Under the pieces are notes generated by a model. That model had not been told where the DNA came from, ran no database searches, and saw only the letters and a program-made list of their open reading frames with translations. DNA of 24,000 nt from Tepidisphaeraceae bacterium (GTDB lineage: Bacteria; Planctomycetota; Phycisphaerae; Tepidisphaerales; Tepidisphaeraceae). This document shows, in pieces, positions 1,249 to 17,225 of this stretch (its first letter is position 1; each line of letters opens with the position of its first letter). The position numbers and the translations under genes are program-made. The stretch spans positions 13,800-37,799 of the forward strand of contig JBEKUH010000036.1 of assembly GCA_049515255.1 (NCBI GenBank), read 5' to 3'.

Positions 1249-1480
1249 CCTCGAACACGGAGAGCTAAAGCGGTTATCGACAATAGAAATTCCGGGCGAC
1301 TTTGTCGAACTGATTCCCGGGACCGAACGGATCGTCACAGAATCCGAAATAATCCCCACATTGTGGTCATATCGCATGTTCGACCTGAAAACTCGACAAG
1401 AGTCCGAAATCGGCCCCAGTGGTGATCGCGTTCTTCTGTGCGCCGCGTTCAACTGGGTGAGTAGCCTCGCCGCTCGTTGA
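1211..1480 (+). CDS. Hypothetical protein, probably the C-terminal continuation of the 637..1248 gene after a 1-nt frame change in the A9 run
   Basis: This 89-aa ORF with protein-like sequence starts inside the end of the previous ORF. The two frames meet at the A9 tract (1222-1230). Removing one A gives a continuous ...DARDKKNIAIIFNLEHGEL... reading frame. Confidence 0.4.
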   Translation: MRATKKNIAIIFNLEHGELKRLSTIEIPGDFVELIPGTERIVTESEIIPTLWSYRMFDLKTRQESEIGPSGDRVLLCAAFNWVSSLAAR

Positions 1481-1541
1481 TCCTGTCCGGATGAAGACGT
1501 GAGTGCGCGAATATGCAAAGGAGATTCTGGGCCGACAATAG

Positions 1542-1581
1542 CCGCTTCGTGCCTTCGTGTCTTAGTGGTCCAATATTCTTT
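1542..1581 (+). repeat. Copy A of a ~40-bp tandem-octamer element (ccgcttcgtgccttcgtgtcttagtggtccaatattcttt)
   Basis: Copy A differs from copy D (3439-3479) at one base over 40 nt. It lies about 80 nt upstream of the clpP paralog-1 start. Confidence 0.9.
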
Positions 1582-1662
1582 TTTTGATTGAAACTCCTCG
1601 CCATGGCGATTGACGCTACCAATCATCGCGCATACGATCCGCTCGCTGGAAATAGGAGACGA

Positions 1663-2367
1663 ATGGAACTATTTGATCCGAATAAAAGGCCGATGCGGAT
1701 GCCGCCGGCTTCGGCAGGGACGCCCATGCAACCGGTTGCCATGCCCGTGGCGATGCCCGGTCCGCCGGGTGGGGGTTACAATCGTTACCGTGAGATGACG
1801 CTGGAGGAAATGCTCCTGGAAAACCGGGTGCTTTTCCTTGTTGGCGAGATCAATCACGTCAGCGCCAGCCGAATTATGATGCAGATGTTGTATCTCCAGA
1901 GCGTCAAACGCGATCTGGATATCAACCTCTACATCAACAGCCCCGGCGGCGTGGTGGATGACACGCTGGCGATCTACGACATCATGAAATTCCTCAGTTG
2001 CGACGTCGCCACCTACTGCATCGGCCGCGCCGAGAGCGGCGGGGCGATTGTTTTCATGGCCGGGAAAAAGGGAAAGCGCTTCATCCTGCCCAACGCCAAG
2101 GTGATGATTCACCAGCCGTTCGGCGGCGTTTACGGACAGGCGGCCGACATCCAGATTCAGGCGGACGAAATCCTCAAAACCAAGGAAACGCTGATCAACA
2201 TTATGTCCAAATGCACCGGCCAGCCGGTCGAACGGATTCGCGATGACAGTGAGCGCGACCGGTTTTTCGATGCCGAGCAGGCTGTGAAATACGGCATTTG
2301 CGACGAGGTTCTTGGCGAGGAGGCGGCCGCGACCATGGTGGTCCCGGACTCCAACAAATCGAGATAA
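1663..2367 (+). CDS. clpP: ATP-dependent Clp protease proteolytic subunit, paralog with a non-canonical Pro/Met-rich N-terminus
   Basis: The ClpP core motifs are present: LYINSPGGVV, a Ser in GRAESGGA, a His in VMIHQPFGG and an Asp in SERDRFF. The start at 1663 is chosen for the strong SD aggag (1654-1658). The ORF itself is open from 1588. Confidence 0.85.
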   Translation: MELFDPNKRPMRMPPASAGTPMQPVAMPVAMPGPPGGGYNRYREMTLEEMLLENRVLFLVGEINHVSASRIMMQMLYLQSVKRDLDINLYINSPGGVVDDTLAIYDIMKFLSCDVATYCIGRAESGGAIVFMAGKKGKRFILPNAKVMIHQPFGGVYGQAADIQIQADEILKTKETLINIMSKCTGQPVERIRDDSERDRFFDAEQAVKYGICDEVLGEEAAATMVVPDSNKSR

Positions 2368-2397
2368 ATTGCGGAGTGATTTCTTGGGGCCCAACTG

Positions 2398-2799
2398 ATG
2401 CGATATCTCGCCATCGATCATCTGGCCATGTGCTGCCACGACGTGGAACGTCAGGCGGATTGGTATTGCACGCAGTTCGGCATGAAGCGGATTGCAGTGG
2501 ATGGCAAAACACCCCCGGCGGTGCTGATCGGATTCGAGGGCAACACCGGCGGCGGGGCGATGATGGAACTCATGCCCGTGCGCGATCCCGGCGCGGATGC
2601 CGACACATTCGCCCGATTCCAGCACGGCATGCGGCACTTCGCCATCCGCGTCACCGATTTCGAAGCCGCCTACGCCCGCCTGAAGGATTTGGGCGTGAAA
2701 TTTCTATTCGAGCCCGTCCCGGCAATGGGCGGTGGGAAAACGGTTTCATTCCGCGATCCCGAAGGGAACGAAGTGCAAATTGTGGAACGAAAAAACTGA
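2398..2799 (+). CDS. VOC (glyoxalase/bleomycin-resistance/dioxygenase) superfamily protein
   Basis: The protein is 133 aa. It has an IDHLAMCCHDV start, a second-half MRHFAIRVTDFE and a C-terminal FRDPEGNEVQIVE, the usual paired beta-alpha-beta-beta-beta VOC pattern with metal-ligand-like H, H and E. Confidence 0.75.
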   Translation: MRYLAIDHLAMCCHDVERQADWYCTQFGMKRIAVDGKTPPAVLIGFEGNTGGGAMMELMPVRDPGADADTFARFQHGMRHFAIRVTDFEAAYARLKDLGVKFLFEPVPAMGGGKTVSFRDPEGNEVQIVERKN

Positions 2800-2820
2800 A
2801 CCACGAAGGGCTTAAGAGAA

Positions 2821-2857
2821 GAATATTTAACCACTAAGACACGAAGACACGAAGCGG
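2821..2857 (-). repeat. Copy B of the tandem-octamer element, inverted orientation
   Basis: The reverse complement (ccgcttcgtgtcttcgtgtcttagtggttaaatattc) matches copies A, C and D with 2-3 mismatches. It forms an inverted pair with copy C across a ~100-bp spacer. Confidence 0.9.
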
Positions 2858-2957
2858 TTTTCTAAGTTCGGGAGTGTGCGTGCGGTAGGGACAAAATAAT
2901 TGAGTTGGATTCAGAAGAAATGAAACGAAGAACTGAATGGTGCTGGAACATCGAAGC

Positions 2958-2999
2958 CCGCTTAGTGTCTTCGTGTCTTAGTGGTTCAATATGTATTTT
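2958..2999 (+). repeat. Copy C of the tandem-octamer element
   Basis: The sequence is ccgcttagtgtcttcgtgtcttagtggttcaatatg. It sits directly upstream of the GxxExxY gene and is in direct orientation with copy D, which sits directly downstream. Confidence 0.9.
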
Positions 3000-3023
3000 G
3001 CATTTTCGGAAAGGCCACGAGGA

Positions 3024-3428
3024 ATGAACGTAGCCAACCCAAACGCGAAGTTGAGTGAAGAAATGGAGCGTGTCGCGACGCAGATTGTCGATTCCGCGTT
3101 CAAGGTTCACTCGGTTTTGGGTCCTGGCCTGTTGGAAAGTGTTTATGAAATCTGCCTTGGATATGAGCTGAAAGAGCGAGGATTGCAGATTCGTCGGCAG
3201 GTCGTGGTTCCAATTAATTATGGGGGAGTCATTCTGGATGATGGACTGAGAATCGACTTGCTCGTTCAGGAATCAGTTATCATCGAGTTCAAAACCGCCG
3301 AACAACACAATGCTCTTTACGAGGCCCAACTACTGACTTACTTGAAACTTTCTGGAAAACGACTCGGCTTTCTGATCAATTTCAATGTTAAACTCATAAA
3401 GGACGGAATAAGACGAGTAATCCTATGA
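3024..3428 (+). CDS. GxxExxY-family protein (PD-(D/E)XK nuclease-like fold)
   Basis: The signature is present as GPGLLESVYEICLGYEL (G-L-L-E-S-V-Y), followed by RIDLLVQESVIIEFKT (a D...E-x-K-like pattern). The size (~135 aa) is typical. The start at 3024 is preferred because the ATG at 2991 lies inside repeat copy C. Confidence 0.85.
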   Translation: MNVANPNAKLSEEMERVATQIVDSAFKVHSVLGPGLLESVYEICLGYELKERGLQIRRQVVVPINYGGVILDDGLRIDLLVQESVIIEFKTAEQHNALYEAQLLTYLKLSGKRLGFLINFNVKLIKDGIRRVIL

Positions 3429-3438
3429 TCCACGAGAA

Positions 3439-3479
3439 CCGCTTCGTGCCTTCGTGTCTTAGTGGTTCAATATTCTTTC
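3439..3479 (+). repeat. Copy D of the tandem-octamer element
   Basis: The sequence is ccgcttcgtgccttcgtgtcttagtggttcaatattctttc. It ends 7 nt before the clpP paralog-2 ATG (3487). Confidence 0.9.
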
Positions 3480-3486
3480 TTCCGCA

Positions 3487-4137
3487 ATGGAAAACGCTAT
3501 GTCTGAAAACACTTTAATCCCGATCGTCATTGAAAAAAGCGGCCGCGGTGAGCGGGCGTATGATATTTATTCGCGCCTGCTCAAGGATCGCATCATCATC
3601 CTGGGCGGTGCGGTCACCGATGAGGTGGCCAACACGATCATTGCCCAATTGCTCTTCCTTTCCAACGACGATCCCAAGAGCGATATCAAGTTTTACATCA
3701 ACTCACCCGGCGGCAGCGTGTCGGCTGGATTGGGGATCATCGACACCATGCACTTCCTCCGCTGCGATGTGGAAACGACCTGCATCGGCATGGCGGCGAG
3801 CATGGGCGCTTGCCTGCTGGCCGCCGGGAAAAAGGGAAAGCGATATGTGCTGGCCAACAGTCAGGTGATGTTGCACCAGCCGCTCATCGGCGGCGTGCTG
3901 CAGGGACCGGCGACTGATTTGGGCATCGAAGCGGTTCACATGCTGCGGCTGCGTGATCGTCTTTACAAACTGATGGCCGGCTTCACGGGCAAGGCGGCGG
4001 AAGTGATTCACCGCGATTTCGACCGGAACAAATGGCTCTTTGCCGAGGAAGCCGTCGAATACGGCTGCGCCGACCGCGTGCTGGAACGCATCCCCGAACT
4101 GATCCGCCCGGTCACTGAAGACGACGACAAGGAATAA
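3487..4137 (+). CDS. clpP: ATP-dependent Clp protease proteolytic subunit, paralog with a canonical N-terminus but Asn at the catalytic Asp position
   Basis: The N-terminal region is canonical ([28 protein letters not shown]). The Ser is present in GMAASMGA and the His in VMLHQP. The position that aligns by eye with E. coli Asp171 reads FDRNKWLF. Confidence 0.9.
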
Positions 4138-4143
4138 TCTCGT

Positions 4144-4758
4144 TTGCCTCGGTTTCCCTGGGCCATCATCGCAATATCCACGGCGATTTCGCTGGCCGGT
4201 TGCAGCAACATGCCGGACAAGGCCAATATCGAATTGCGGAAACAAATCCAGTCGATGCAGGCCAACATCGATCAGCTCAATCATCAGCACGATGCGGATG
4301 AGGCGACCATTCGCGGCCTGGAATCCAGCGCGACCTCCGTGCCGACATTGCCCCCGGATGAAATCGACCAACTCGTCACCGCATCGGGATTTCGATTTGG
4401 AAAAGTCACCGGCGGCTGGCGCGCCGATCCAAACGCGCCGGCCGATACAGAGTTGAAAGTGTTTGTCGTTCCCACCGACGAGCAGGGCGACGATCTCAAG
4501 GCCGCGGGTTCGTGGCACGTGGAATTGTTCGATCTGAATCTAAAAGACCCGCGCATCGGCCAATGGGATTTCGATCCCGCCGCCGCGCGCAATGCCTGGG
4601 TCGGGACATTTCTGGTGTACATGTATGTGCTGGATTGCCCGTGGCAAACCGCCCCGACGCACGAGAAACTTTTGGTGCGCGTGACATACACGGATTTGCT
4701 GACCCATCGGGTTTTCACCGAGGATTACGATCACGCGATGGTGAAGATCGCTCAGTGA
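4144..4758 (+). CDS. Hypothetical lipoprotein with a coiled-coil-like N-terminal segment
   Basis: The gene has a TTG start 6 nt after the clpP stop. The signal peptide ends in the lipobox LAGC (AISTAISLAGCSN). The segment IELRKQIQSMQANIDQLNHQH looks heptad-like. I recognised no family. Confidence 0.6.
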   Translation: MPRFPWAIIAISTAISLAGCSNMPDKANIELRKQIQSMQANIDQLNHQHDADEATIRGLESSATSVPTLPPDEIDQLVTASGFRFGKVTGGWRADPNAPADTELKVFVVPTDEQGDDLKAAGSWHVELFDLNLKDPRIGQWDFDPAAARNAWVGTFLVYMYVLDCPWQTAPTHEKLLVRVTYTDLLTHRVFTEDYDHAMVKIAQ

Positions 4759-4778
4759 TCGGCGAGTAAACTCGCCGG

Positions 4779-4994
4779 TTATAGAGAGTCAGAAAAATAC
4801 TGTCAGTGAAATTCTTTGGTGACGCATCTTGTCCCCTCTCCCGGTACTCTGGGAGAGGGTTAGGGTGAGGGCGATTTCGCTCGAATTATTCGAACGATTT
4901 TTCAATTCGGCCCTCACCCCTGCCCTCTCCCGGAATACCGGGAGAGGGGAAAAATTCATGGCGCGACTGACACGGTTTTTCTGACTCTCTATAA
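4779..4994. repeat. Nested inverted-repeat element filling the convergent gap between the lipoprotein gene and ftsI
   Basis: The outer arms are 4779-4807 and 4966-4994 (ttatagagagtcagaaaaa...tgtcagt, 26/29 matched). The inner arms are 4832-4872 and 4910-4950. Each inner arm contains its own 9-bp hairpin, ccctctccc...gggagaggg. Confidence 0.9.
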
Positions 4995-5000
4995 ATAGAT

Positions 5001-6929
5001 TTAATTCTGCCCGCTACTGGTGACCAGCCGCTCGGGGGCCAAGGGAGTGGAGCCGAAAGAACGATCCGTGTACATCTTGTCCGAATAATCAAAAATAACA
5101 CTCGGCATCGGCGCGGACGGCAGGGGAAGATCGGGCGAACTGGGGACATCCATGTAGCTGAGTGCCCGCTCGATGAAATCGCACGTGCCGGGCGCCGACA
5201 CGTCCGCGCCGTAATAGGCGATCGATGGATCAGGTTCGTGAATCACCATCACGACCACGAGGCGAGGATTTTCGTACGGGGCCATCGCCATGAAGCTGCT
5301 GTTGAATCGCGTGGCACTGTAGCCGTGGCCTTCGGCGATGTGGGCAGTGCCGGTTTTTGCGGAGATATTCCAGACTTTGCTGCGATGTCCCCTGGCAGTG
5401 CCGCGGATCACCACATCGCACAGGATTCTCCGCATGGTCGCAGCCGTGTCGGCGTCGATGACCGGCGACGCATCAGAAGTATCATCCGACGGACGCGAGA
5501 GCACTTCGCCATCGGGTCCGACCGTTCCCATGACAACATGCGGTCGCACCAGATGTCCGCCATTGGCGAGGGCAGAAAATGCCCGCGCCAGTTGCAGCGG
5601 CGTGACCATCACCTCATATCCCTGAGCAATCGACTCGGTGCTGTCGCGCTGCCATTTGCTCAGGGGTCGTACCAATCCCGGATTTTCGCCGGGAAGATCA
5701 ATGCCGGTGGTTCGACCAAAACCGAAACTCGTGATAGCGCGGTACAAGCGCGCGTTGCCCATGCGCTCGCTGAGTTGCGACATGACGATATTGCTGGATT
5801 TCACTAGGCCATCCCACGTGCAGAGATTTCCGTAATAATGATCATCCGTGATCGTCCGGCCGTACGGCGTTTGCCAGGTGATTCCGGGAACAGTCCACAT
5901 TTCCCACGGCGTCGTCACGTGCCACATGAGCGCCGGGGCGGCGAAGAACGGCTTGAAGGTCGATCCCGGTTCATACGGCGCGACCAGCGCGCTGTTTCGC
6001 CGCATATCCGGCAGCGAATCGCTCAGCGTTTGTGGATTAAAAGTCGGATAATTCGCCAGCGCGAGGATTTCGCCATTGCGCGGGTCCATGGCGATGAACT
6101 CGCCGCGCTTGGCTTTGTTTTGCTCGATGGTTCGCTGCAATTCCTCTTCAGCGAGCATCTGCAGATTGGCGTCGATGGTGAGAACGAGATGCGTGCCGTG
6201 TTTTGGCGGAAGATAATCGTCATCATCCACGCCGATGGGTTGGCGGCGGGCGTCTTTGGTCTGCCGCTCAAATCCCGGTTGGCCGGCGAGCATGGTGTTG
6301 AATTTCAGTTCCAATCCGTCGAGGCCCGAACCATCGCCGCCGCATCCGCCAAGCACGTGGGCCGCGAGTGATCCCATCGGATAAACCCGCGCGCTGCTGG
6401 CAACGATGCCGACTCCTTTGAGATGCAGCGCGTCGATCTGGGCGACGGCGTTGTCATCGAGGTCGTCCGCCACCTTCACGAATCGGCTGGTGGAACGATC
6501 GCCAAGAAGTTGCGCCAACTCGTACGGATCCTTCCCGATGATCGAGCCGAGATTTTGCAACGCCTGATCCATGTCCAGCAGGCTGCGGCCATTTTCCTGG
6601 AAATAATCCTGCATGAATTTCGGATCCACAAATAGGCTGCGGACCTGAATCGTGCCGGCCATGATCAAGCCGTTGCGATCGGAAATATTCCCGCGCCTGG
6701 GCGGAAGGATGAGGGTTTCATGCTCCTGCCGATCCGCCCGGTCAATACTGATTTCCCGGCCATAGGTTTGCAGATACGCCACCCGCCCGACCAGCATGGA
6801 AAGCAGGGCGAGGACGATGCAGATCATGACGGCGCAGCGGCTAGCGGAAAAATTTGGCATGTGGAACGTCCGGTAATACATCGGCAGAATTTGCCGGGGG
6901 AATCGAATTTTAGATAGCCGCACGATCAC
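5001..6929 (-). CDS. ftsI: Class B penicillin-binding protein (FtsI/PBP3-like peptidoglycan D,D-transpeptidase)
   Basis: The protein has an N-terminal TM helix (VMICIVLALLSMLVG) and the motifs SxxK (GSTFKPF), SxN (KSSNIV) and KTG (AKTGTAH). It sits downstream of the ftsL-like gene and rsmH. The start is uncertain: GTG 6929, ATG 6881 or ATG 6860. Confidence 0.85.
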   Translation of the reverse strand: MIVRLSKIRFPRQILPMYYRTFHMPNFSASRCAVMICIVLALLSMLVGRVAYLQTYGREISIDRADRQEHETLILPPRRGNISDRNGLIMAGTIQVRSLFVDPKFMQDYFQENGRSLLDMDQALQNLGSIIGKDPYELAQLLGDRSTSRFVKVADDLDDNAVAQIDALHLKGVGIVASSARVYPMGSLAAHVLGGCGGDGSGLDGLELKFNTMLAGQPGFERQTKDARRQPIGVDDDDYLPPKHGTHLVLTIDANLQMLAEEELQRTIEQNKAKRGEFIAMDPRNGEILALANYPTFNPQTLSDSLPDMRRNSALVAPYEPGSTFKPFFAAPALMWHVTTPWEMWTVPGITWQTPYGRTITDDHYYGNLCTWDGLVKSSNIVMSQLSERMGNARLYRAITSFGFGRTTGIDLPGENPGLVRPLSKWQRDSTESIAQGYEVMVTPLQLARAFSALANGGHLVRPHVVMGTVGPDGEVLSRPSDDTSDASPVIDADTAATMRRILCDVVIRGTARGHRSKVWNISAKTGTAHIAEGHGYSATRFNSSFMAMAPYENPRLVVVMVIHEPDPSIAYYGADVSAPGTCDFIERALSYMDVPSSPDLPLPSAPMPSVIFDYSDKMYTDRSFGSTPLAPERLVTSSGQN

Positions 6930-6957
6930 GACATTGAGCCGGCCCGCCCTCGGGAAT

Positions 6958-7002
6958 AAAAAGGGGACATCACTGATTATTAATCAGTGATGTCCCCTTT
7001 TT
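6958..7002. terminator. Perfect 45-nt palindrome (22+1+22) with an A5/T5 flank, shaped like a bidirectional intrinsic terminator
   Basis: The sequence aaaaaggggacatcactgatta-t-taatcagtgatgtccccttttt is perfectly self-complementary. It starts 25 nt downstream of the ftsL-like stop and ends 28 nt upstream of the longest ftsI ORF start. Confidence 0.6.
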
Positions 7003-7026
7003 CTCTCCGGGCAACCGAGAGTTGCG

Positions 7027-7311
7027 TTATTCGCCGACATCTGGCGTGGTAATCCAATTCTTTTCGCCCAGGGGATTCGATGCGGGGGCGGACATTTTTA
7101 AGTCCTGGCCTTTCAATGTCGCCGTTACCGCATTGGGCGCGGTGCATTCGGCGATGTTGAGTTGTTGATTCCAGAGTTCTGATTGGCTGGATTCGATGTG
7201 ATTGTGCAACGCATCGATCTGGTACGTCAGATTCAATTGCTGCTGACGCAGCTCCAGCAGGGCCACGCCGATGGCCATGCTCCATGCGAGGCATAGGAGG
7301 AGCTTGAGCAT
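7027..7311 (-). CDS. FtsL-like small bitopic membrane protein (TM helix plus coiled coil)
   Basis: From ATG 7311 the sequence is MLKLLLCLAWSMAIGVALL (TM) followed by ELRQQQLNLTYQIDALHNHIESSQSELWNQQLNI (heptad-like). The gene lies between rsmH and ftsI, as ftsL does. The call rests on position and architecture, not on sequence identity. Confidence 0.55.
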   Translation of the reverse strand: MLKLLLCLAWSMAIGVALLELRQQQLNLTYQIDALHNHIESSQSELWNQQLNIAECTAPNAVTATLKGQDLKMSAPASNPLGEKNWITTPDVGE

Positions 7312-7318
7312 CCGCTTC

Positions 7319-8254
7319 TCAATTCGCTGAGGCAACCGGTTTTGACGGGAGCCGCAATTTCGTGCCGGAGATGACGACATCGTGGTCATCGCCCTTGAGC
7401 ACCGAGGCGTTCAATTCTTTCAGTGCATCCACTTGCGATGCATCGCCCAGCACATCGTTGGCGATTCGCCAGAGGCTGTCGCCATCCTGCACGGTGTAGA
7501 AATATTGGCGGCTGGTTGAGGGCGTTGGAGCATCCGTTGGAGTCGGCAAATCGGTTGAATTTTGCGATGGAATATTCTGCGCGGTTGCGCCGGCGGTGGT
7601 CGGGATCACATACACTTTTCCAATGATCACCGTATCCGGATCATCTTTCAGCGATGGATTGGCATCGATGATCGCCCGCACATTGGCGCGGCTGCTGGAG
7701 CCCATGAGTTTGGCGGCCATGCGCGAAACGCTGTCGCCCGGCTGGGCCTTGTAGGTTTTCAATGCGCTCGGAGCGGCGGGGGAATTCTGAGAATCCGATG
7801 GCGGCTGATCGACGCCGACAATTTCCTCGCCGTTGCGACGGGCGACACGAGACAGTTCATCCGATCCAGTCCCCGGCCCATCAGCTCCGGCAATCGACTG
7901 GGGCGGCGCCGGATTGACTTGCGGGGTCGCTGGATCGGTTACATACGTTGGCCTGTTCGCTTCCTCCCGGGATGGATCAACCGGCGAGACTGCGACAGGA
8001 TTTGCTGGAACCACCGGCGGATTTAATTCCTGCTGCGTCGGTACGGCTTGTCGCGGCGTGGAATCCGGCGGAGTGTAAATCGTGATCGGTGGATTGCTGG
8101 CCATCGGCGCATTCATCGCCTCGCGCACATCACTGGCGGCATTGATCAGCGAGGCCGGCTCGATCGTCGGACGGAAATGGTCCGAGAGCAGAATCCCGAT
8201 GACGATGATAAATGCCAACCCCACGAGCAGTCCAATTTTTGTTTCGCGCGTCAT
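7319..8254 (-). CDS. Membrane-anchored protein with a Pro-rich linker and two C-terminal LysM domains
   Basis: The TM helix is KIGLLVGLAFIIVIGILL. The LysM-like repeats are YKAQPGDSVSRMAAKL...GKVYVIP and YTVQDGDSLWRIANDV...GTKLRLP. ATG 8254 is preceded by an SD-like gagg. The ORF is open to a TTG at 8272. Confidence 0.75.
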   Translation of the reverse strand: MTRETKIGLLVGLAFIIVIGILLSDHFRPTIEPASLINAASDVREAMNAPMASNPPITIYTPPDSTPRQAVPTQQELNPPVVPANPVAVSPVDPSREEANRPTYVTDPATPQVNPAPPQSIAGADGPGTGSDELSRVARRNGEEIVGVDQPPSDSQNSPAAPSALKTYKAQPGDSVSRMAAKLMGSSSRANVRAIIDANPSLKDDPDTVIIGKVYVIPTTAGATAQNIPSQNSTDLPTPTDAPTPSTSRQYFYTVQDGDSLWRIANDVLGDASQVDALKELNASVLKGDDHDVVISGTKLRLPSKPVASAN

Positions 8255-8296
8255 GCCAACCTCACAATCCAAGGGCGCCGCGAGCGCCGATTCCCG

Positions 8297-9196
8297 TCAA
8301 TGTTTTTTTTCGATGGCCCGCAATTTGGCCGAGCGCGACCGGGGATTGCGGGCCGTTTCTTCGGAAGTGGGGGCGAGGGGCTTTTTCGTGAGGATGGTCA
8401 CAACCCCGGTCTGCTCCAACGACCGAAACACATTTTTGACAGCTCGATCTTCCATCGACTGGAAGCTGATGACGGCCATTCGACCGCCGGGCGCTAAAAA
8501 CGCTGGGCCATCTCGCAGCAGCCGGGCGAGGTTCTCCATCTCGCCATTGACTGCCATTCGCAGCGCTAAAAACGTCCGCGTGGCCGGATCGATCCGCGAT
8601 CGGTCGGTTTTGCCGACCGCTTGGCGCACCAATTCGGCCAATGCTTCGGTAGTTTTGATCGGCCAATTCTTGCGCGCTTCGCCAATCTTTCTTGCGATTC
8701 CACGAGAATAATGTTCCTGTGCGAGTTCATATAGGACGTTTGCGAGGTCTTTTTCGGGAAGATGGTTCACCAAATCAGCCGCAGTTTGCGCGAGCCGGGG
8801 ATCGATGCGCATGTCCAGCGGCATGTCGCGGTCGAAGCTCATGCCATAAGCCGGATCGAATAATTGATTGGTGCTGATGCCCAGGTCGGCCAGGATTCCG
8901 TGGATCGGCGGCCAGCCGCAGGTCTGCAAAACATCCGGCAATTCCGAGAAATTGGCGTGGAACAGGCGCGTGGGGCAGGGGGATGTTTTGAGTTTCTCGG
9001 CGGCGAATTCCAGATTGCGCGGGTCGGCGTCCAGGCCAATCAATAATCCTCGCGGACCGAGCCGAGCGGCGATGGCCATCGCATGTCCGGCCCGGCCGAG
9101 CGTGCAATCAACAAATGTCTGCCCGGTAGCGGGGCGCAGAAAATCCAGCACCTCTTGTAACAGCACCGGCTCGTGACCATCGGGTGGAAGTTCCAT
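8297..9196 (-). CDS. rsmH: 16S rRNA (cytosine1402-N4)-methyltransferase RsmH/MraW
   Basis: The N-terminus is HEPVLLQEVLDFL. The motifs DCTLGRAGH, ILADLGISTNQL and a C-terminal NPRSRSAKLRA are typical of RsmH. Confidence 0.9.
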   Translation of the reverse strand: MELPPDGHEPVLLQEVLDFLRPATGQTFVDCTLGRAGHAMAIAARLGPRGLLIGLDADPRNLEFAAEKLKTSPCPTRLFHANFSELPDVLQTCGWPPIHGILADLGISTNQLFDPAYGMSFDRDMPLDMRIDPRLAQTAADLVNHLPEKDLANVLYELAQEHYSRGIARKIGEARKNWPIKTTEALAELVRQAVGKTDRSRIDPATRTFLALRMAVNGEMENLARLLRDGPAFLAPGGRMAVISFQSMEDRAVKNVFRSLEQTGVVTILTKKPLAPTSEETARNPRSRSAKLRAIEKKH

Positions 9197-9202
9197 GCGC
9201 GC

Positions 9203-9239
9203 AAAAAGAAAGCGAGGGTCGATCGGATTCGACCCTCGC
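9203..9239 (-). terminator. Intrinsic terminator of the PEP-CTERM gene
   Basis: An 11-bp GC-rich stem (gcgagggtcga / tcgaccctcgc, 9212-9222 and 9229-9239) has a 6-nt loop. On the minus strand it is followed by tttcttttt. It lies 37 nt downstream of the gene's stop. Confidence 0.75.
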
Positions 9240-9275
9240 AGTTCATCTTCGTTAGTTAGAAACTCAAATCAACGC

Positions 9276-9968
9276 TCAAATCACTCGCTGACGGCGCTTG
9301 CTCAGGAGATTCAGAACAATCACGCCCGCCAATCCACCGAGGCCAGTCCAGGCCGCGGCGGGAAGGGGAACGGGCGATGATCCGCCGCCACCCGTGATGG
9401 GGATTTCCTTAAGAAAGAAATCGGACGGCAGGCCGGAGGTGACCGGATTTGCATCCATCACCAGATCGCCGCCGTTAACGCCATACCCGATCGAGGCGGT
9501 ATCGCCGATACCCAGCGTTCCACCGGAAAGAGTGTATGACGTTCCATCGGGAGTCAGGCTGTCCGACGTCCAGGGTGAGATCGAGGTGAACGTGCTGGTG
9601 AACGATTGACCACCAGCCATCGGGCTGATCACCAGGAACTGAAAGCCGCTGAAGGGCGTCGTTGTGCTGTTGGTGATGCTTTCATCGAGAATCGCGATTT
9701 GCTGGGCGGCAGCGGTGTAGCTGGCCTGCGTAAAGGTGATCGCGATGCCTTCAGTGCTTTGGAAATCTGCGAACTTTTCCAGACCAAGCTCAACACCAGT
9801 TGTGTTGTCAGCTACGAGAGAAAGACCGACGCCCACGGGGAAAGAAATCTTCCAACCATCCACCGTATCACCACTTTGGATGACGGTCGACGCCGAAGCT
9901 GATTTCGATCCAACCATTGCAATGGCACCCACGGCCATTGCGCTTAACATCAAAGTACGACGAATCAT
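9276..9968 (-). CDS. Secreted protein with a PEP-CTERM-type C-terminal sorting signal
   Basis: The signal peptide is MIRRTLMLSAMAVGAIAMVGSKSASAS. The C-terminus is SPVPLPAAAWTGLGGLAGVIVLNLLSKRRQR: a VPxP motif, a TM helix and a basic cluster. A strong SD ggagg precedes the ATG. Confidence 0.7.
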   Translation of the reverse strand: MIRRTLMLSAMAVGAIAMVGSKSASASTVIQSGDTVDGWKISFPVGVGLSLVADNTTGVELGLEKFADFQSTEGIAITFTQASYTAAAQQIAILDESITNSTTTPFSGFQFLVISPMAGGQSFTSTFTSISPWTSDSLTPDGTSYTLSGGTLGIGDTASIGYGVNGGDLVMDANPVTSGLPSDFFLKEIPITGGGGSSPVPLPAAAWTGLGGLAGVIVLNLLSKRRQRVI

Positions 9969-10435
9969 AAAAGCCTCCTTAAACCTGCCGACCTACACGA
10001 ATACAACCGGAGTTGTCTGTTCCGGCGTCCGCAGGTTCCGGACCTTCCTTTTTTCAACTAGGGGCAGCGGGAACCACGTGGCCCGTTCACTGCCGATCAC
10101 CCAATCCCTTGGTTTTCTTCGGACTCCTTTCCGCTGTCCCACGGGGCAGCGTGCTCATCCGCGGCGGCTGCCGAGCGTTATCCACGGATACTCAATAACC
10201 TAGATTATCGGAACTCATTGGCTGCGCCAACGCGGAAAGCCAATAAAATTCTTGCCGCAAACTGGATACCGCTTGGCTTCTGTGTGATTAGGATTCCACA
10301 CCGTTTACCCACGTTGAAGCCGCAGACATAATACCAAGCGCGGCCGTGGAAGAGGAAAGAAAACCCACGTTCGCAACAGGCGCTGAAATCGGCTCGGTTT
10401 TTCCGGGTTATTTTTGGCGTTTTTTGTCTTTCAAC

Positions 10436-11059
10436 ATGGCGCCAATTCCCATCATCCACGAAGACACCGATATCCTACTGGTCAACAAACCGGCGGGAAC
10501 CCTCACCAGCACCGGCCCCCGCGAGCGCCGGCCCACGCTATGGGCCGGGGTGCGGCAATATGTCGCGGATTCGGACCGGCGGGCGCAAGCCGGATTGGTC
10601 CATCGCCTAGATCGGGAAGCCTCGGGACTGCTGATTTTCTCAAAAAATCGCCATGCTCATGAATCCCTGAAGCGGCAATTCTTCCATCACACGGTGGAAA
10701 GGGTGTACGAGGCCGTCGTTTCGCCACCGCCAAAAACGCCCAAGGGGACGATCAAAACCCGCCTGAGTGAATGGTCGGATGGATCGGTTCATGTCAGCCG
10801 CACTGGGAAAGAGACGATTACGGAGTACGAGGTCATATCGGTCGATCAGCAAACGGCTCGATTGAAAATCCGGCTACAAACCGGCCGCAAGCATCAGATC
10901 CGCGCCCATTTGGCACACCTTGGATGCCCAATTGTCGGAGATGAAATGTACGGCGGATCACAGAACAAAGCCGGCCTGATGCTCGCGGCGGTTCAGCTTG
11001 GTTTCGATCATCCACGCACCGGGAAACGGATGACATTCCGCATCCTGGCGCCGTTTTGA
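10436..11059 (+). CDS. RluA-family pseudouridine synthase
   Basis: The motifs are IIHEDTDILLVNKPAG, HRLDREASGLLIF (catalytic Asp motif) and GRKHQIRAHLAHLGCPIVGDEMYG. The start at ATG 10436 fits the family N-terminus. Confidence 0.85.
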   Translation: MAPIPIIHEDTDILLVNKPAGTLTSTGPRERRPTLWAGVRQYVADSDRRAQAGLVHRLDREASGLLIFSKNRHAHESLKRQFFHHTVERVYEAVVSPPPKTPKGTIKTRLSEWSDGSVHVSRTGKETITEYEVISVDQQTARLKIRLQTGRKHQIRAHLAHLGCPIVGDEMYGGSQNKAGLMLAAVQLGFDHPRTGKRMTFRILAPF

Positions 11060-11063
11060 ATTT

Positions 11064-11287
11064 CGAAGAAAGACAGTTTCCACCACGGAGACACGGAGAG
11101 CACGGAGGGGAAAGAAGAGTTTGAACCGCAGAGAGCGCAGAGGAATAAAATACATGCATTCAATTTTATTTTCTTTCTCTGCGGCCCTCTGCGGTGAAAA
11201 TTGATTTGAAGGAATTAAGTAAACCGCAATATAGCCGAATGCCACCTCCGTGAACTCCGTGTCTCCGTGGTGGAAATGATTTCTTCG
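11064..11287. repeat. Nested inverted-repeat element built from tandem cacggaga and cgcagaga units around an A/T-rich hairpin core, with no ORF inside
   Basis: The outer arms are 11064-11108 and 11245-11287 (tttccaccacggagacacggag...cacggagg). The inner arms are 11126-11143 and about 11177-11195. The core at 11144-11176 contains aataaaat...attttatt. Confidence 0.9.
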
Positions 11288-11307
11288 TACTACAATCCAC
11301 CGCTCGA

Positions 11308-12099
11308 ATGTCTCATCATCGTTTTCTCCTTCCAGCCTTTTCACTTTGCCAGCGGGAACTCGTGCGGTTTCTGCGGCAGCGGAATCGGATCATCGGGGCA
11401 CTGGCGACGCCGATAGTGTTTTGGGTTCTGCTCGGGGCGGGCATGGGCAAGAGTTTTCAGACCAGTGGGCCGGGCGGGGGGAGCTTTATGCAATATTTCT
11501 TTCCGGGAACGGCGGTGATGATTTTGCTTTTCACCGCGATTTTTTCCACCATCTCGATTATCGAAGACCGCCGGGAAGGATTTTTGCAATCGGTGCTGGT
11601 CGCCCCGGTGTCGCGATTGGCGGTCGTGGGTGGAAAAATCCTCGGCGGGACGCTGCTGGCGACAGCGCAAGGTGTGATTTTTCTTTTACTTGCACCGCTG
11701 ATTGGCGTGAAACTGACCCTCGCTGGATTTACCGAAGCGGTGCTTATCATGCTGGTCGTCAGTTTCGCTCTGACCGGCCTGGGATTCTGCATCGCCTGGC
11801 GGATGAGTTCCACGCAGGGATTTCACGCCATTATGAATCTGTTTCTCATGCCCATGTGGTTTCTCTCCGGCGCGATGTTCCCGGCAGAAGGGGCCCATGG
11901 CGTGATGCAGTGGATCATGGGGCTGAATCCTTTAACCTACGGCGTCTCGGGCCTGCGAAGATCTCTCTATGCCGATCTGCCTCGTGGAAATCTTCCCAAC
12001 TTTTCGTACAGCCTGGGAATTTCAATTTTGTTCGCCCTGATCATGTTCTGGCTCGCGGGCCTCAGCGCCCGACAGCGCGTTGCGGCGGATTTGCAGTAG
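11308..12099 (+). CDS. ABC-2 type transporter permease
   Basis: The protein is 263 aa. It has an N-terminal RELVRFLRQRNRIIGAL and about six hydrophobic segments typical of ABC-2 (NodJ/DrrB/NosY-like) permeases. Confidence 0.75.
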   Translation: MSHHRFLLPAFSLCQRELVRFLRQRNRIIGALATPIVFWVLLGAGMGKSFQTSGPGGGSFMQYFFPGTAVMILLFTAIFSTISIIEDRREGFLQSVLVAPVSRLAVVGGKILGGTLLATAQGVIFLLLAPLIGVKLTLAGFTEAVLIMLVVSFALTGLGFCIAWRMSSTQGFHAIMNLFLMPMWFLSGAMFPAEGAHGVMQWIMGLNPLTYGVSGLRRSLYADLPRGNLPNFSYSLGISILFALIMFWLAGLSARQRVAADLQ

Positions 12100-12121
12100 A
12101 ATCAAAAACCTGAATCGAATC

Positions 12122-12769
12122 ATGCGAAGAGAACAAAAAATCCTGATCCTGGCGCTGTGGCTCGTGGCCGGCATGGCGATCGTATCCGTCGCCGCCATCA
12201 AATGGGCGCGATTGGCGGAGAAACAGCCAACGGCCAATCCGGATGCTGTTGTCTCAAACGCGGGCTCGGAAGAAGAATCGCTTCCCGATCTCTATCCCGC
12301 ACCGGAATTCACGTTGACCGATCAACACAATCAAACCATAACGAAATCACAATTGCTCGGGCATCCATGGATTTGCGATTTCATTTTCACCACGTGCGCT
12401 GATGCCTGCCCGCTGATGTCCACGCGCATGTCGGCCTTGCAGAATAAATTGCCGCCGGATGTGAAATTGGTTTCGTTCACGGTCGATCCGCTCCACGACA
12501 CGCCGGAAGTTCTGGCGAAATACGCCCAGGCCTATCACGCCCAGGACGGCCGCTGGCTTTTCCTCACCGGTCCGGTCCAGACGGAAGACGATGTCATCCG
12601 AGGGATGCGGCTCTATTTCCAGCCGGCCCAGGGTCAAAGCGTGATCCAGCACAGCCAGCATTTCGTGCTGGTCGATGCCAAGGGATCAGTGCGGGAGTAT
12701 TACGACAGCAGCATCCTCGGTGAAACCGATCATCTCATTGCCGACGTCCAGCGATTGCTCAATCCATGA
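12122..12769 (+). CDS. SCO1/SenC family copper chaperone (thioredoxin fold)
   Basis: The protein has an N-terminal TM anchor, a CxxxC motif in FIFTTCADACP and a conserved His in IQHSQHFVLVD. The start at ATG 12122 avoids an overlap with the permease. Confidence 0.8.
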   Translation: MRREQKILILALWLVAGMAIVSVAAIKWARLAEKQPTANPDAVVSNAGSEEESLPDLYPAPEFTLTDQHNQTITKSQLLGHPWICDFIFTTCADACPLMSTRMSALQNKLPPDVKLVSFTVDPLHDTPEVLAKYAQAYHAQDGRWLFLTGPVQTEDDVIRGMRLYFQPAQGQSVIQHSQHFVLVDAKGSVREYYDSSILGETDHLIADVQRLLNP

Positions 12770-13200
12770 ACCCCGCGACCAGCCCGATGCCCGAGATCAA
12801 CGCCTCGCTCAACGCCCTCAGCGCGGTGCTGATCGTGATCGGATTTTTCTTCATCAAATCCGGCCGATACCGCGCACACGGCTGGACGATGGTCCTGGCG
12901 ACACTCGTCTCCACAATCTTTTTAGCCTGCTATCTCACTTACCACATCCGTCACGGCGAAAAGACCACGCACGCGCATCCGGGAATTTTGCGCGATGCAT
13001 ATCTGATCGTTCTCCTGCCTCATTTATTTTTTGCGGTGGTGTTACTGCCGATGATTTTCGTCACGCTACGCCGCGCCTGGCGGCGTGATTGGGCCAGCCA
13101 TCGCCGCATGAGCGTGCCGACCTTTTGGGTATGGATTTACGTTTCGCTAAGCGGAGTCGCGGTGTATTTCATGCTGTATCACACTTCGCTGGCGACGTGA
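12766..13200 (+). CDS. DUF420 (CtaM-like) integral membrane protein
   Basis: The protein is 144 aa with four hydrophobic helices and an EINASLNALSAVLIVIGFFFIK start. An ATGA overlap with the SCO1 stop suggests translational coupling. Pairing of DUF420 with SCO1 and cytochrome oxidase genes is the usual context. Confidence 0.7.
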   Translation: MNPATSPMPEINASLNALSAVLIVIGFFFIKSGRYRAHGWTMVLATLVSTIFLACYLTYHIRHGEKTTHAHPGILRDAYLIVLLPHLFFAVVLLPMIFVTLRRAWRRDWASHRRMSVPTFWVWIYVSLSGVAVYFMLYHTSLAT

Positions 13201-13201
13201 G

Positions 13202-13301
13202 GAATCGGGTTTCGGGTCTCGGGTTTGGGGTTTCGGGTGAAAAAACGATCGGTCTTTGGTATTTCCCCGAAACCCGACACCCGAAACCCGAACCCCGATT
13301 C
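13202..13301. repeat. Inverted repeat of tandem ttcgggt heptamers that fills the convergent DUF420/scpB gap exactly (possible bidirectional terminator)
   Basis: The left arm is 13202-13237 (gaatcgggtttcgggtctcgggtttggggtttcggg). The right arm is 13266-13301 (cccgaaacccgacacccgaaacccgaaccccgattc). About 31 of 36 positions are complementary. Confidence 0.85.
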
Positions 13302-13302
13302 T

Positions 13303-13941
13303 TCACCGCGTCGGCTGCAAACCGTCTTCCGATTGCGGCAGATCCTTCAGACTGTTCAATCCGAACAATTCCAAAAATCGGCGGGTGGTGCCATAGAGGA
13401 TGGGCCGGCCCGGTTCTTCCGCTCGGCCGGCGATTCTAACAAGATGCTTTTCCATCAGATTGCGAATCGTCTCCCCGCACGCCACGCCGCGGATGGCTTC
13501 GATGTCGGCTCGCAGGATCGGCTGTTTATAGGCGATGATCGCCAACGTCTCGAGCGCCGCTTTGGTCAGCTTGGCGTCGATCTCGCGCTGGTGGAGTTTT
13601 TTTAGATATTCGCCGAATTCCGGCAGGGTGAGCACCTGATATCCGCCGGCGACCTGCTCGATGCGGAAGGATCGATTGGTTTCTTCGTAGGATTGATTGA
13701 GTTTGCCGATGGCCTGACGAATCGGCCGAGTCGTGTCCAGGCCCAGCAATTCCGCCAATCGGCCGGCCGTCAGCGGATGATGCGTCGCCAGCAGCAGCGC
13801 CTCGACGGGCCGGGGATCAATTTCGGGCACGGGGGCGCTGGAATCTTCCTCGATTGGCTCCGGCTCCGACATTCCATCGGGAATCTCGTTCGCCTCCGGC
13901 GCTTCTTCCGTCTCCATTTCGTAATCCTTTACCAATCGCAT
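13303..13941 (-). CDS. scpB: Segregation and condensation protein B
   Basis: The motifs are VEALLLATHHPLTAGRLAELL, IEQVAGGYQVLT, LETLAIIAYKQPILRADIEAIRGV and GRPILYGTTRRFLELFGL. Confidence 0.85.
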   Translation of the reverse strand: MRLVKDYEMETEEAPEANEIPDGMSEPEPIEEDSSAPVPEIDPRPVEALLLATHHPLTAGRLAELLGLDTTRPIRQAIGKLNQSYEETNRSFRIEQVAGGYQVLTLPEFGEYLKKLHQREIDAKLTKAALETLAIIAYKQPILRADIEAIRGVACGETIRNLMEKHLVRIAGRAEEPGRPILYGTTRRFLELFGLNSLKDLPQSEDGLQPTR

Positions 13942-14008
13942 CAGCCGATTTATCGGTCACAGTGGCGATAATGGATCAGTTTAGCCGCCGCGGCCTCGCG
14001 GCGGAATG

Positions 14009-15007
14009 TCAGGCGCGTCTCCAATGCCGGAACCGATCCAGCGCAACGGCCAGGATGATGATACCGCCAGTCACGATTTCCTGCAGGGAATTGGACAATC
14101 CAACTTTTGTGCAGCCATTGGCGACGACGGTCATGATCAGCGCGCCGACCAAGGTTCCAAACACGCCGCCTTGGCCGCCGATCAAGCTGGTGCCGCCGAT
14201 CACCACTGCGGCGATGATGTTCAGCTCGTATCCATTGGCGCTGGTGGCATCGCCGATGGTCAGGCGGGAAAAATGTAACACTCCCGCGACGCCGGCAAAA
14301 AATCCCGCGAAGAGATAGATGCCCAATTTCGTCGGCTTCACGCGCACGCCGCAGAGCCGCGCGGTTTGTTCGTTGGAGCCGATGGCGAACACATGCCGGC
14401 CGAACCGGGTGTAATGCAATATCGCACTCACGAGCAATGTCAGAACAAACATCAGCCACACACCGACGGGGAAAATCATCCACTGTTGATCCGGCCGAAG
14501 TTGATGCATCAGCGAATTGATCCACGTGCGCGGCGCATCGACATCCGTTTCATCAGCGATCCACTTGGCGGCCCCACGAATTGCGCCCCACATGCCGAGC
14601 GTCACGATGAACGGACTCAAATCCAGCAGCGTCACCAGAAGCCCGATCGCTAGTCCGCACGCCATGCTTGCCCCGATGCCGACCAGAGCGGACATCGCCG
14701 GCGACACGTTCATCAACAGTAATTTAGCGATCACCACGGTGCACATGGCGATGTTCGATCCAACTGAAAGGTCGATTCCGCCGGAGATGATGATGACCGT
14801 TGCCCCCAATGCCGCCGTGGCATACACGGTGGTTTGCAGGAGCATGATTTGCAGATTGTCGACACGCAGAAAAGTTTTGGGCCGCAGAAATGCGAACAAT
14901 GCGAAGATCGCCAGCAGCCCCAGCACCGGGCCGATCTGATTGAGCCAGCCAAAGCTGATTCGCCAGCGCGGCGAACCGGGCTGCTCGAGCGGCGGGGATT
15001 GTTGCAT
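14009..15007 (-). CDS. Sugar ABC transporter permease (RbsC/AraH/XylH-like)
   Basis: The protein has multiple TM helices and family-typical IGGTSLIGGQGGVFGTLVGALIM and GGIIILAVALD motifs. ATG 15007 lies 8 nt after the ATPase stop. Confidence 0.8.
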   Translation of the reverse strand: MQQSPPLEQPGSPRWRISFGWLNQIGPVLGLLAIFALFAFLRPKTFLRVDNLQIMLLQTTVYATAALGATVIIISGGIDLSVGSNIAMCTVVIAKLLLMNVSPAMSALVGIGASMACGLAIGLLVTLLDLSPFIVTLGMWGAIRGAAKWIADETDVDAPRTWINSLMHQLRPDQQWMIFPVGVWLMFVLTLLVSAILHYTRFGRHVFAIGSNEQTARLCGVRVKPTKLGIYLFAGFFAGVAGVLHFSRLTIGDATSANGYELNIIAAVVIGGTSLIGGQGGVFGTLVGALIMTVVANGCTKVGLSNSLQEIVTGGIIILAVALDRFRHWRRA

Positions 15008-15015
15008 CGTCGAGG

Positions 15016-16503: not shown

Positions 16504-17225
16504 TCCAACATCCCCGCGGCGGCGGCGTCGAGCAGCCAGATCATCTGGCCATCGACGGGGTCGATCATCTGGACGGGGAAATCATCCGGTTTGGGCGGAC
16601 CGTGCAGGACTTCTTCCAGCCGCGCGGCCTTGGACGCGCCGGCCACCATTTCAATAACCTCTTGGGCGCGATTGATGAACGGCGCGCTCATCGTGATTCG
16701 CCAGACATTCATTTTCGGCACAAAGTTCGCCACGCAACGGTGCTTGGTTTCCTTGAGCGCTTCGGTATGCGGAAAAAGGGATGCGGTGTGTCCGTCATCG
16801 CCCATGCCCAGAAGAATTAAATTCATGCCGCCGTCGCCAAATTTTTCCTTGAGCAATTGCCCATATTCAATGGCCGCTTTTTGCGGATCGAGTTCGCCCT
16901 TCATCCGATGAATATTCTGCGGTGGGATCGGCACGTGATCGAGCAGCGCGCGGGCGGCCATTCCGAAATTGCTTTCCGGATCGTTCGGCGGCACGCAGCG
17001 CTCATCGCCCCAGTAAATTTCCCAGTGGTTCCAGTCGATTCGCTCGGAATATTCATCCGTCGCGAGCAATTCGAATAGGGTTTTGGGTGTATTACCGCCT
17101 GAAAGTGCGATGGAAAATGATTCGTGCCGCCCCTTGGCATCATCGGACATCTCGATAATGCGCTCCGCCGCTGCGACTGCAAGCGATTTCAGATCCGGCA
17201 CAACTTGAATGATTCGCTCGCCCAT
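16500..17225 (-). CDS. pgl: 6-phosphogluconolactonase
   Basis: The motifs are FSIALSGGNTPKTLFELL, WEIYWGDERCVPPNDPESNF and LILLGMGDDGHTASLFP. The stop overlaps the ATPase start (ATGA). Confidence 0.85.
   Translation of the reverse strand: MGERIIQVVPDLKSLAVAAAERIIEMSDDAKGRHESFSIALSGGNTPKTLFELLATDEYSERIDWNHWEIYWGDERCVPPNDPESNFGMAARALLDHVPIPPQNIHRMKGELDPQKAAIEYGQLLKEKFGDGGMNLILLGMGDDGHTASLFPHTEALKETKHRCVANFVPKMNVWRITMSAPFINRAQEVIEMVAGASKAARLEEVLHGPPKPDDFPVQMIDPVDGQMIWLLDAAAAGMLE

Follow-up and report, generated by a model that had tools for sequence, protein, structure and literature searches.

In REPIN-RAYT systems, doublets of repetitive extragenic palindromic (REP) sequences go together with an IS200/IS605-like Y1 (HUH) transposase, the REP-associated tyrosine transposase (RAYT; PF01797). 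Miniature inverted-repeat transposable elements (MITEs) are derived from insertion sequences (IS), depend on a transposase and make target-site duplications. Free-standing homing endonuclease genes, such as the seg and mob genes of phage T4, have no bounding inverted repeats and target a neighbouring conserved gene; homing enzymes include the PD-(D/E)XK nuclease I-Ssp6803I. Lastly, stem-bounded intervening sequences (IVSs) can carry an open reading frame (ORF): the IVS of the Coxiella burnetii 23S rRNA gene is 428 nt long and low in GC, has a 28-bp stem whose loop holds an S23p ORF, and undergoes cleavage by RNase III (PMC4990558). Here we describe a cassette that recalls several of these systems, in a 24,000-nt stretch of DNA from a Tepidisphaeraceae bacterium (contig JBEKUH010000036.1, positions 13,800 to 37,799; hereafter, the window). 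It encodes a protein of the GxxExxY family (TIGR04256; PDDEXK_3, PF13366), lies between a VOC/glyoxalase gene and clpP2, and is bounded by inverted arms made of tandem octamers. We propose that these arms belong to one tandem-octamer palindrome family, that they are probably the cognate terminal inverted repeats of one GxxExxY clade, and that the cassette is a selfish, IVS-like element rather than a regulator of clp genes.

The class is best called a variant of IVS-type stem-bounded ORFs, REPIN-RAYT systems and free-standing homing nucleases. Like ORF-bearing IVSs, it spans ~430-690 nt, has a terminal inverted-repeat stem, of 44 nt as against 28 bp in Coxiella, around one small loop ORF, is lower in GC than its host, has a sporadic distribution suggesting horizontal acquisition, and lies in sense orientation inside a transcribed unit. 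Unlike IVSs, it occupies an mRNA operon junction rather than helix 9, 25 or 45 of 23S rRNA, its ORF encodes a PD-(D/E)XK nuclease (PF13366 only) rather than the four-helix-bundle S23p protein, its arms are tandem octamers, and it has many ORF-less copies; RNase III excision would here be an analogy only. The likeness to REPIN-RAYT systems lies in a nuclease-type gene that has hairpin repeats of its own on either side, in dispersed ORF-less intergenic copies, and in a repeat family that co-varies with the protein clade, whereas the protein belongs to PF13366 with no match to PF01797, the arms consist of tandem 8-10-nt units, and an action of the GxxExxY protein on the repeats is something that we infer. 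As with homing genes, a small nuclease gene sits between conserved operon genes (VOC/clpP2, fabD/fabG, radA/FAD-dependent protein, ade/manC-like) and relatives have empty sites, but the conserved feature here is the element's own arms. Short palindromic intergenic elements with nested insertions also recall MITEs and the cyanobacterial short tandemly repeated repetitive (STRR) heptamers, and the latter share tandem units of 7-8 nt that vary in number through slippage (here in L053 and L140). In contrast to MITEs, neither a transposase nor a target-site duplication was found here, although the relatives are too diverged for exact boundaries to be set; to our knowledge, STRRs do not form the boundaries of a nuclease gene.

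A low-GC insertion in the VOC-clpP2 junction

All four arm copies, A to D, reported in a preliminary description of the window are present where they had been placed (Table 1). An arm X consists of AACCAC followed by three units of CACNAAGN, and X' is its complement. Tandem Repeats Finder reports a period of 8 with 2.9 copies per arm, in agreement with the three tandem 8-nt units described before. Copies A and D differ at one position in 40 nt, as reported, and are 90% identical across 50 nt; copy B is the reverse complement of an A/D-type arm, and copy C is the most diverged (76% across 50 nt). Copies A, B and D were recovered by a search with a 35-mer allowing up to 3 mismatches, for which the chance expectation from 100 dinucleotide-preserving shuffles was 0.00 matches.

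The pairing of these copies changes how the cassette is delimited. The preliminary description had paired B with C around a spacer of ~100 nt, which is correct for the core arms (76 nt when measured between extended arms), but B pairs better with D: the inverted pairs extend over 44 nt at 93% complementarity for B/D, 47 nt at 87% for B/C and 44 nt at 89% for A/B. Thus, C and D are indeed direct repeats that box in the ORF, as proposed, but the ORF also lies within the inverted pair B/D, which had been overlooked, and this outer pair is the boundary of the cassette, with C as an inner arm. From left to right, the cassette reads X(B)-spacer-X'(C)-ORF-X'(D), that is, [X-loop-X']-ORF-X', possibly with the vestige of a fourth arm, CCACGAGAA, just upstream of D. 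Folded as RNA, B and C are predicted to form a hairpin of -75.6 kcal/mol (z = -5.8). When the whole 706-nt region is folded, the minimum free energy and centroid structures both pair B with D (z = -5.8), in a stem that encloses C and the ORF. No terminator-like site was found at any arm in a promoter and terminator scan of positions 1300-3700, in which the only relevant match was the clpP1 promoter, and no Rfam family matched anywhere in the window at gathering thresholds, nor was there any rRNA.

Table 1. Coordinates of the cassette, its arms and the surrounding operon in the window.
Feature	Positions	Strand	Description
Copy A	1542..1581	+	solo X' arm, CTTCGTGC CTTCGTGT CTTAGTGG + TCCAATATTC
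clpP1 promoter-like site	1610..1638	+	TTGACG-17-TACGAT; scan match, downstream of A
clpP1	1663..2367	+	PF00574, 6.8e-67; ancestral operon gene, not cargo
VOC/glyoxalase gene	2398..2799	+	PF00903, 4.9e-21; ancestral operon gene, not cargo
Inserted block	2800..3486	+	~690 bp, ~45% GC; arms B, C and D, spacer, GxxExxY ORF
Copy B with outer extension	2814..2862 (core 2821-2857)	-	left terminal inverted repeat; read on the + strand, X arm AAGAGAAGAATATTTAACCAC TAAGACAC GAAGACAC GAAGCGG
Copy C	2958..2999	+	inner X' arm; direct repeat of D
GxxExxY/PDDEXK_3 ORF	3024..3428	+	TIGR04256, 1.3e-39; PF13366, 9.5e-38
Copy D with outer extension	3434..3481 (core 3439-3479)	+	right terminal inverted repeat, X' arm
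clpP2	3487..4137	+	adjoins VOC ancestrally; displaced here by the insertion

Comparison with relatives places the insertion. We used contigs that encode a ClpP1 84-96% identical to that of the window (L141, L142/L143, a contig of P0124, L148-L150 and L151), and all of them have the gene order clpP1-VOC-clpP2-hypothetical, without the ~690-bp block. The VOC and clpP2 genes overlap by 4 nt in these relatives or are separated by gaps of 19, 23, 27 or 61 nt, versus 687 nt in the window, and neither CACNAAG/CTTNGTG arms nor a GxxExxY gene occurs at the locus in any of them. Since the relatives have a short, arm-less junction, this comparison of sequences shows that ~2800-3486 is a lineage-specific, low-GC insertion into the tight VOC-clpP2 junction. 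Consistent with the previous remark that the ORF is more A/T-rich than its neighbours, GC content is 0.44-0.49 across ~2700-3600 and 0.56-0.62 on either side, the inserted block itself having 45% GC in surroundings of 57-62%. A sigma-70-like sequence, TTGACG-N17-(C)ATACGAT(CCGC), lies upstream of clpP1 in the window and in L141, L142, L148, L150 and L151; by gene order and this putative promoter, clpP1-VOC-clpP2 is an ancestral operon with one conserved promoter. It follows that the cassette did not separate two formerly adjacent clpP genes, as had been suggested, but entered between VOC and clpP2, VOC being part of the ancestral operon. Upstream of clpP1, L141 (~5715-5810) has a palindrome whose tandem units belong to another family (GAACCGCAGAGC ... 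CTCCGCGTTCTCCGCGAGCTTCGCGGTTCAAT) with a nested repeat, TAGGGTGGG..CCCACC, and an outer end, GGTTCAAT, that matches the window's arms.

Copy A does not belong to the cassette. It lies upstream of the conserved clpP1 promoter, ~29 nt from its -35 hexamer, and ends 81 nt before the clpP1 start (80 nt had been given; the 7 nt reported between D and the clpP2 ATG are correct), it is absent from the relatives, and it shows no significant local RNA structure when folded alone (z = -0.7). It is a solo arm located one intergenic region further upstream, beyond the transcript of the operon. The idea that A and B bracket clpP1 and VOC was rejected, because both genes are ancestral in the relatives. No inverted partner for A was found in 1-1534 or 1592-2800, where the best local alignments scored 21 and 20, below the best shuffled score of 26, and a second cassette around an upstream 215-aa hypothetical gene was dropped for want of a partner arm. 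That gene (~50% GC, no Pfam match) is split by a separate difference: an A-run at 1221-1229, within the ORF at 833-1480, is one A longer in the window and L007 than in L006 and L008, which reflects either phase variation or an assembly error.

A nuclease family with clade-specific arms

The GxxExxY ORF of the window encodes 134 aa, with an alternative start at 2991, and scores 135.2 bits against TIGR04256 (cut-off 35) and 129.6 bits against PF13366 (cut-off 22). The residues G35-L-L-E38-S-V-Y41, D78 and E88-F-K90, invariant among 44 homologues, are intact, as is Q102xxxY106, whose two named residues reach at least 90% conservation among homologues. An AlphaFold2 model (mean predicted local distance difference test score 92.9) has an alpha-alpha-beta-beta-beta-alpha-beta-beta core, and a Foldseek search of the PDB gave only weak matches (E ~1e-3), to Cas4 SSO0001, lambda-type exonucleases and the Cas4-like ACE1; we found no close relative with a solved structure. 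The QxxxY motif is a mark of RecB-family nucleases, with which these weak fold matches agree. The motifs and the model suggest that GxxExxY genes encode minimal RecB/Cas4-like PD-(D/E)XK nucleases, and the window's protein, with all catalytic residues in place, looks active. Searches for GxxExxY and PDDEXK_3 proteins gave at least 7,997 and at least 6,546 matches; viral contigs yielded a single GxxExxY locus, and no family in either the PADLOC or the PHROGs profile library matched. The 2012 catalogue of PD-(D/E)XK families gives the function of this family as "Unknown" and notes "multiple transfers".

Tandem-unit inverted arms flank the ORF at all 15 independent GxxExxY loci that we examined, in metagenomes, Bacteroides, Sphingomonas, Bernardetia and Gemmatirosa (phyla of metagenome contigs being taken from record titles); ten of these loci had been picked up independently of their own arms. 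The arrangement varies around a common design: X-ORF-X' in L097, L133 and L134, X-ORF-[X-loop-X'] in L114 and L138, and hairpin-ORF-hairpin in L043 and L005, while in L137 the downstream arm is 3.2 kb away, beyond a later IS insertion. Arms of other families, built in the same way, accompany more distant GxxExxY genes, with TAAAGGAT/TGAAGGAT in L005, CAGATGAACA/CGGATGAACG in L067, CGCAGAGG in Gemmatirosa, CACAGAGG in Bacteroides finegoldii (between radA and a gene for an FAD-dependent protein), CACAGAGA in Bernardetia (between ade and a mannose-1-phosphate guanylyltransferase gene) and CGCGAAGG (/CTTCGCG) in Sphingomonas parapaucimobilis (between fabD and fabG; L146, 2477-2940). At this last locus, the GxxExxY gene fills the fabD-fabG junction of a fatty-acid synthesis cluster, and the ORF as annotated continues through the downstream arm. 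Arms of the types CACGGAG and CAGATGAAC would likewise be non-cognate to the window's protein.

In this sample of about six arm families, the arms follow the clade of the protein. Clade A, to which the window's protein belongs, has CACNAAG units, and clade B, which is L067-like, has (C)AGATGAACAC units that supply the start codon. This difference can be read in the proteins themselves, since the called N-termini of many homologues, such as NHQDTKTPR, HEEHEDHE and EPQRHEDTKK, are the translated upstream X arm: an arm-encoded MN[TA][DN] start is found in 81 of 119 proteins of clade B and 1 of 119 of clade A, and a CACNAAG-derived peptide in 17 of 119 of clade A and none of 119 of clade B. Among 887 kb of fetched DNA, about 10 of the ~14 distinct ORFs enclosed by X...X' pairs encode GxxExxY proteins, as detected by a finder based on the arm motif (a generic finder of inverted repeats plus ORF was too noisy at loose thresholds); one of the others is AbiC-like. 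The fetched loci include no member of the four-helix-bundle S23p family, some members of which may have similar arms.

Some of these loci have other contents that we record here. The AbiC-like ORF (257 aa; PF16872, 6.4e-20; L037, ~3270-4640) lies within three nested palindrome layers, with CACNAAG, CGCAAAG and CACAGAG arms. The GxxExxY gene of L138 is one of several small genes, together with HicA, HEPN/nucleotidyltransferase, PemK and BrnT/CopG genes, interspersed in an hdr-like redox operon of an Anaerolineae metagenome-assembled genome (MAG; 3569-18004). The contig L137 carries, besides its GxxExxY cassette, a Y1_Tnp (RAYT-like) gene (4870-6180) flanked by REP-like repeats (GGGGTCAGGTCTTGCACTGCCACAT), as is classical for REP/RAYT systems; these repeats are unrelated to the GxxExxY arms.

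ORF-less hairpins and the anatomy of the arms

The arm family of the window is not confined to its locus. A 26-mer core of the repeat was found in at least 125 other loci, unrelated to clp genes. Searching one genome per species gave 5 loci, on three contigs of a Phycisphaerae MAG, one of an uncultured bacterium and one of a Bacteroidetes MAG, and all 5 are inverted-repeat hairpins between unrelated genes, four with X followed by X' and one (L005) with X' followed by X. A scan of metagenomes with a slightly degenerate version of the core gave at least 120 loci, which we classified by their best partner arm. Among the 120 loci listed, 52 are X..X' hairpins with a loop of up to 60 nt, 9 have a loop of 61-149 nt, 8 of 150-700 nt and 5 of more than 700 nt; 11 have the reverse order, X'..X, and 35 have no partner within 8 mismatches, some of them at contig ends. 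A GxxExxY gene or remnant is found in or beside the hairpin at 5 of the 120 (L043, L069, which is the window's own locus, L097, L114 and L125). The element is thus dispersed and mostly ORF-less.

We analysed arm anatomy in 71 short-loop hairpins. At the constant positions of the units (CTT-GTG opposite CAC-AAG), pairing is seen in at least 83% of cases, and at most of them in more than 90%. The variable fourth position is complementary between arms in 49% of cases in register and 52% out of register, unit-to-unit identity at this position within one arm is 53%, and variation at the R/Y spacer position in one arm is independent of that in the other. The unit variant is therefore homogenised across the element without base-pair compensation, and what is conserved is a repeated motif in a dyad arrangement. 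Selection for base pairing, which we had considered, was rejected because the variable positions show no pair-specific compensation.

The number and nesting of units and hairpins also vary. At one locus sampled twice, downstream of the GxxExxY gene, there is 1 hairpin in L138 (10413-10469) and there are 5 tandem hairpins of ~72 nt each in L140 (4706-5052); in L053 (~150-353), one arm has expanded to more than 10 tandem TCTTAGTG units; and hairpins of different families are nested in L037, L110 and the window (11077-11276). At this position of the window, a junction between genes for a pseudouridine synthase and an ABC-2 permease, a tandem-octamer palindrome (CACGGAGA x2.8 + CTCCGTGAA x2.8; 32 nt, 94%) contains in its loop a nested third palindrome, CCGCAGAGAGCGCAGAGG / CTCTGCGGCCCTCTGCGG, and no ORF.

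The window has further palindromes of this kind. Nested palindromes at 4779-4994, between genes for a lipoprotein-like protein and a PBP, have outer arms of 29 nt and inner arms of 44 nt of the type CCCTCTCCCGG...CCGGGAGAGGG, and a similar repeat is seen translated (SPSPHPSPRWGEG) in a Phycisphaerae MAG (L001). A heptamer palindrome, TCGGGTT x4.9 / CCCGAAA x4.7, with 50-nt arms (82%), lies at 13188-13315 between the convergent genes DUF420 and scpB. Lastly, the units of a 26-nt palindrome at 23099-23158, CCACAGATGGACAAATGC.../...GCATTTGTGCATCTGTGG, resemble the arms of the L067-like GxxExxY clade.

Spread of the element and alternative explanations

We infer the following mode of spread. The GxxExxY nuclease would recognise arms of its own family, probably in the form of an extruded hairpin or cruciform, and would nick or cut ORF-less copies, such that recombinational repair copies in the ORF-bearing version, as in homing into palindromes; alternatively, repair could move ORF-less palindromes in trans, as RAYTs do with REPINs. 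Direct arms, such as C and D here or the hairpins of L043 and L005, would recombine with one another, which would delete the ORF and leave solo hairpins, comparable to solo long terminal repeats. The B/D stem would loop the cassette out of the operon transcript, so that the operon tolerates the insertion; by analogy with the Coxiella IVS, this stem could be a substrate for RNase III, and in read-through RNA it might in addition keep the nuclease from being translated. The preliminary description's notion of a hairpin-bounded, IVS-like mini-cassette thus stands in substance, with its insertion site and boundaries corrected: repeat-less relatives also lack the GxxExxY gene, and every other GxxExxY locus examined has the arm-ORF-arm design.

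Several observations weigh against this proposal. We saw no mobility event directly, and the cassette is fixed, with invariant arms, in all six metagenome samples of this species. Leaving out the ORF itself, its closest homologue reaches only 70% identity, and the window's copy has therefore not recently been active in any sampled genome. A TAC to TAA change in the GxxExxY ORF of L009 (588-590, equivalent to window positions 3339-3341) truncates the protein at 116 aa, and the gene may therefore be decaying here. No target-site duplication is evident at 2814 and 3481, where the relatives are too diverged for exact boundaries to be defined. A nuclease incapable of strand transfer would, on its own, depend for its spread on host recombination over arms of 30-45 nt. 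For four of the 15 loci, it was the arm pattern that led to their discovery, and these are therefore biased. Finally, the anatomy of the arms points to selection on the unit motif and not on each base pair, which fits recognition by a protein but leaves a function of the hairpin as such unproven.

Alternatives could include a role of the palindromes for the host, as REP-like structural elements (terminators, mRNA stabilisers, insulators or sites for nucleoid proteins) that spread or are retained because of that function, with GxxExxY as a passenger or maintenance factor. Such a role would be in keeping with the preponderance of ORF-less, intergenic copies, with the T-run after and A-run before some hairpins, as in bidirectional terminators, with the position of the window's other tandem-unit palindromes at convergent or co-directional gene junctions, and with the thiS, sufU-like and DUF59 genes that are sometimes flanked by arms. 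However, only 18% of the 71 hairpins have a T-rich tail, for which reason we rejected a general role as intrinsic terminators; their stems show no pair-specific compensation; a passenger would not be predicted to have arm families that track its clades; and an insertion that breaks the tightly coupled VOC-clpP2 junction is unlikely to benefit the host. We therefore regard a host-serving role as unlikely. It is far less likely that the arms are an operator shared by clpP1 and clpP2 promoters and bound by a CtsR-like repressor, as the preliminary description had also suggested on the basis of the near-identical copies A and D, each just upstream of a clpP paralogue. The relatives keep the same operon and the conserved clpP1 promoter without the element, their clpP2 overlaps or abuts VOC and so has no promoter region of its own, and the core recurs, set between unrelated genes, at no fewer than 125 other loci. 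Moreover, the units do not match the CtsR heptad, A/GGTCAAA, which is found in Firmicutes, and we give this explanation almost no credence.

The arms form imperfect palindromes, their mismatches falling at regular intervals, and the arms enclose cargo that is small, promoterless, in the same orientation as its neighbours and occasionally of another kind, such as the AbiC-like ORF. These features recall attC sites, and the ORF could in principle be moved in trans by a recombinase encoded elsewhere, with no involvement of the GxxExxY protein. Neither the annotated portion of the window nor the surroundings of the other loci yielded an integrase or transposase, however; cassettes are single and dispersed rather than in arrays; the outer ends (GTTCAAT, GTTAACA) do not consistently fit the attC core consensus, GTTRRRY; and the predominance of GxxExxY among arm-bounded ORFs, with arms that co-vary with this cargo, would be unexpected. 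This makes attC-like movement very improbable. Slightly less probable still is that GxxExxY is a defence- or toxin-like accessory gene inherited horizontally together with the arms as its own transcriptional or translational control region. The toxin-like genes that pepper the metabolic operon of L138 would suit such an origin, as would the upstream arm, which is purine-rich and holds Shine-Dalgarno-like runs and, in clade B, even a start codon; but the family has no counterpart in the defence and phage profile libraries, and neither the great surplus of ORF-less hairpins bearing these arms nor the tandem amplification of hairpins between strains would be explained.

We thus favour the selfish, IVS-like element with cognate arms. 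The architecture is apparently new to the searchable literature: searches for GxxExxY, PDDEXK_3, the arms, heptamer hairpins and small dispersed repeats returned no description of it, a scope that leaves aside the curated TIGR04256 and PF13366 descriptions, which might mention repeats. GxxExxY is a large family with no known function, and its consistent boxing by clade-specific arms, together with its insertion in conserved operons, makes the cognate arms a likely substrate of the nuclease. These elements break operons, and their direct repeats are able to delete essential genes, A and D here flanking clpP1 and VOC. They also mislead gene callers, which translate the arms as spurious N-termini such as NHQDTKTPR and MNTDEHG, and metagenome assemblies may fragment at them, many contigs with these genes being short. 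More broadly, the cassette offers a possible origin for the abundant intergenic tandem-unit hairpins of many environmental genomes. We raise only tentatively, as a proposition with less than an even chance of being right, that GxxExxY nucleases and their clade-specific palindromes constitute an unrecognised, phylum-spanning class of selfish DNA in which the nuclease drives the spread of the palindromes and of itself. If true, this would account for many of the tandem-unit hairpins in soil Planctomycetota, Acidobacteriota, Chloroflexota, Bacteroidota and others, and the system would stand as an analogue of REPIN-RAYT in function and as the counterpart, outside rRNA, of the ORF-bearing IVS.

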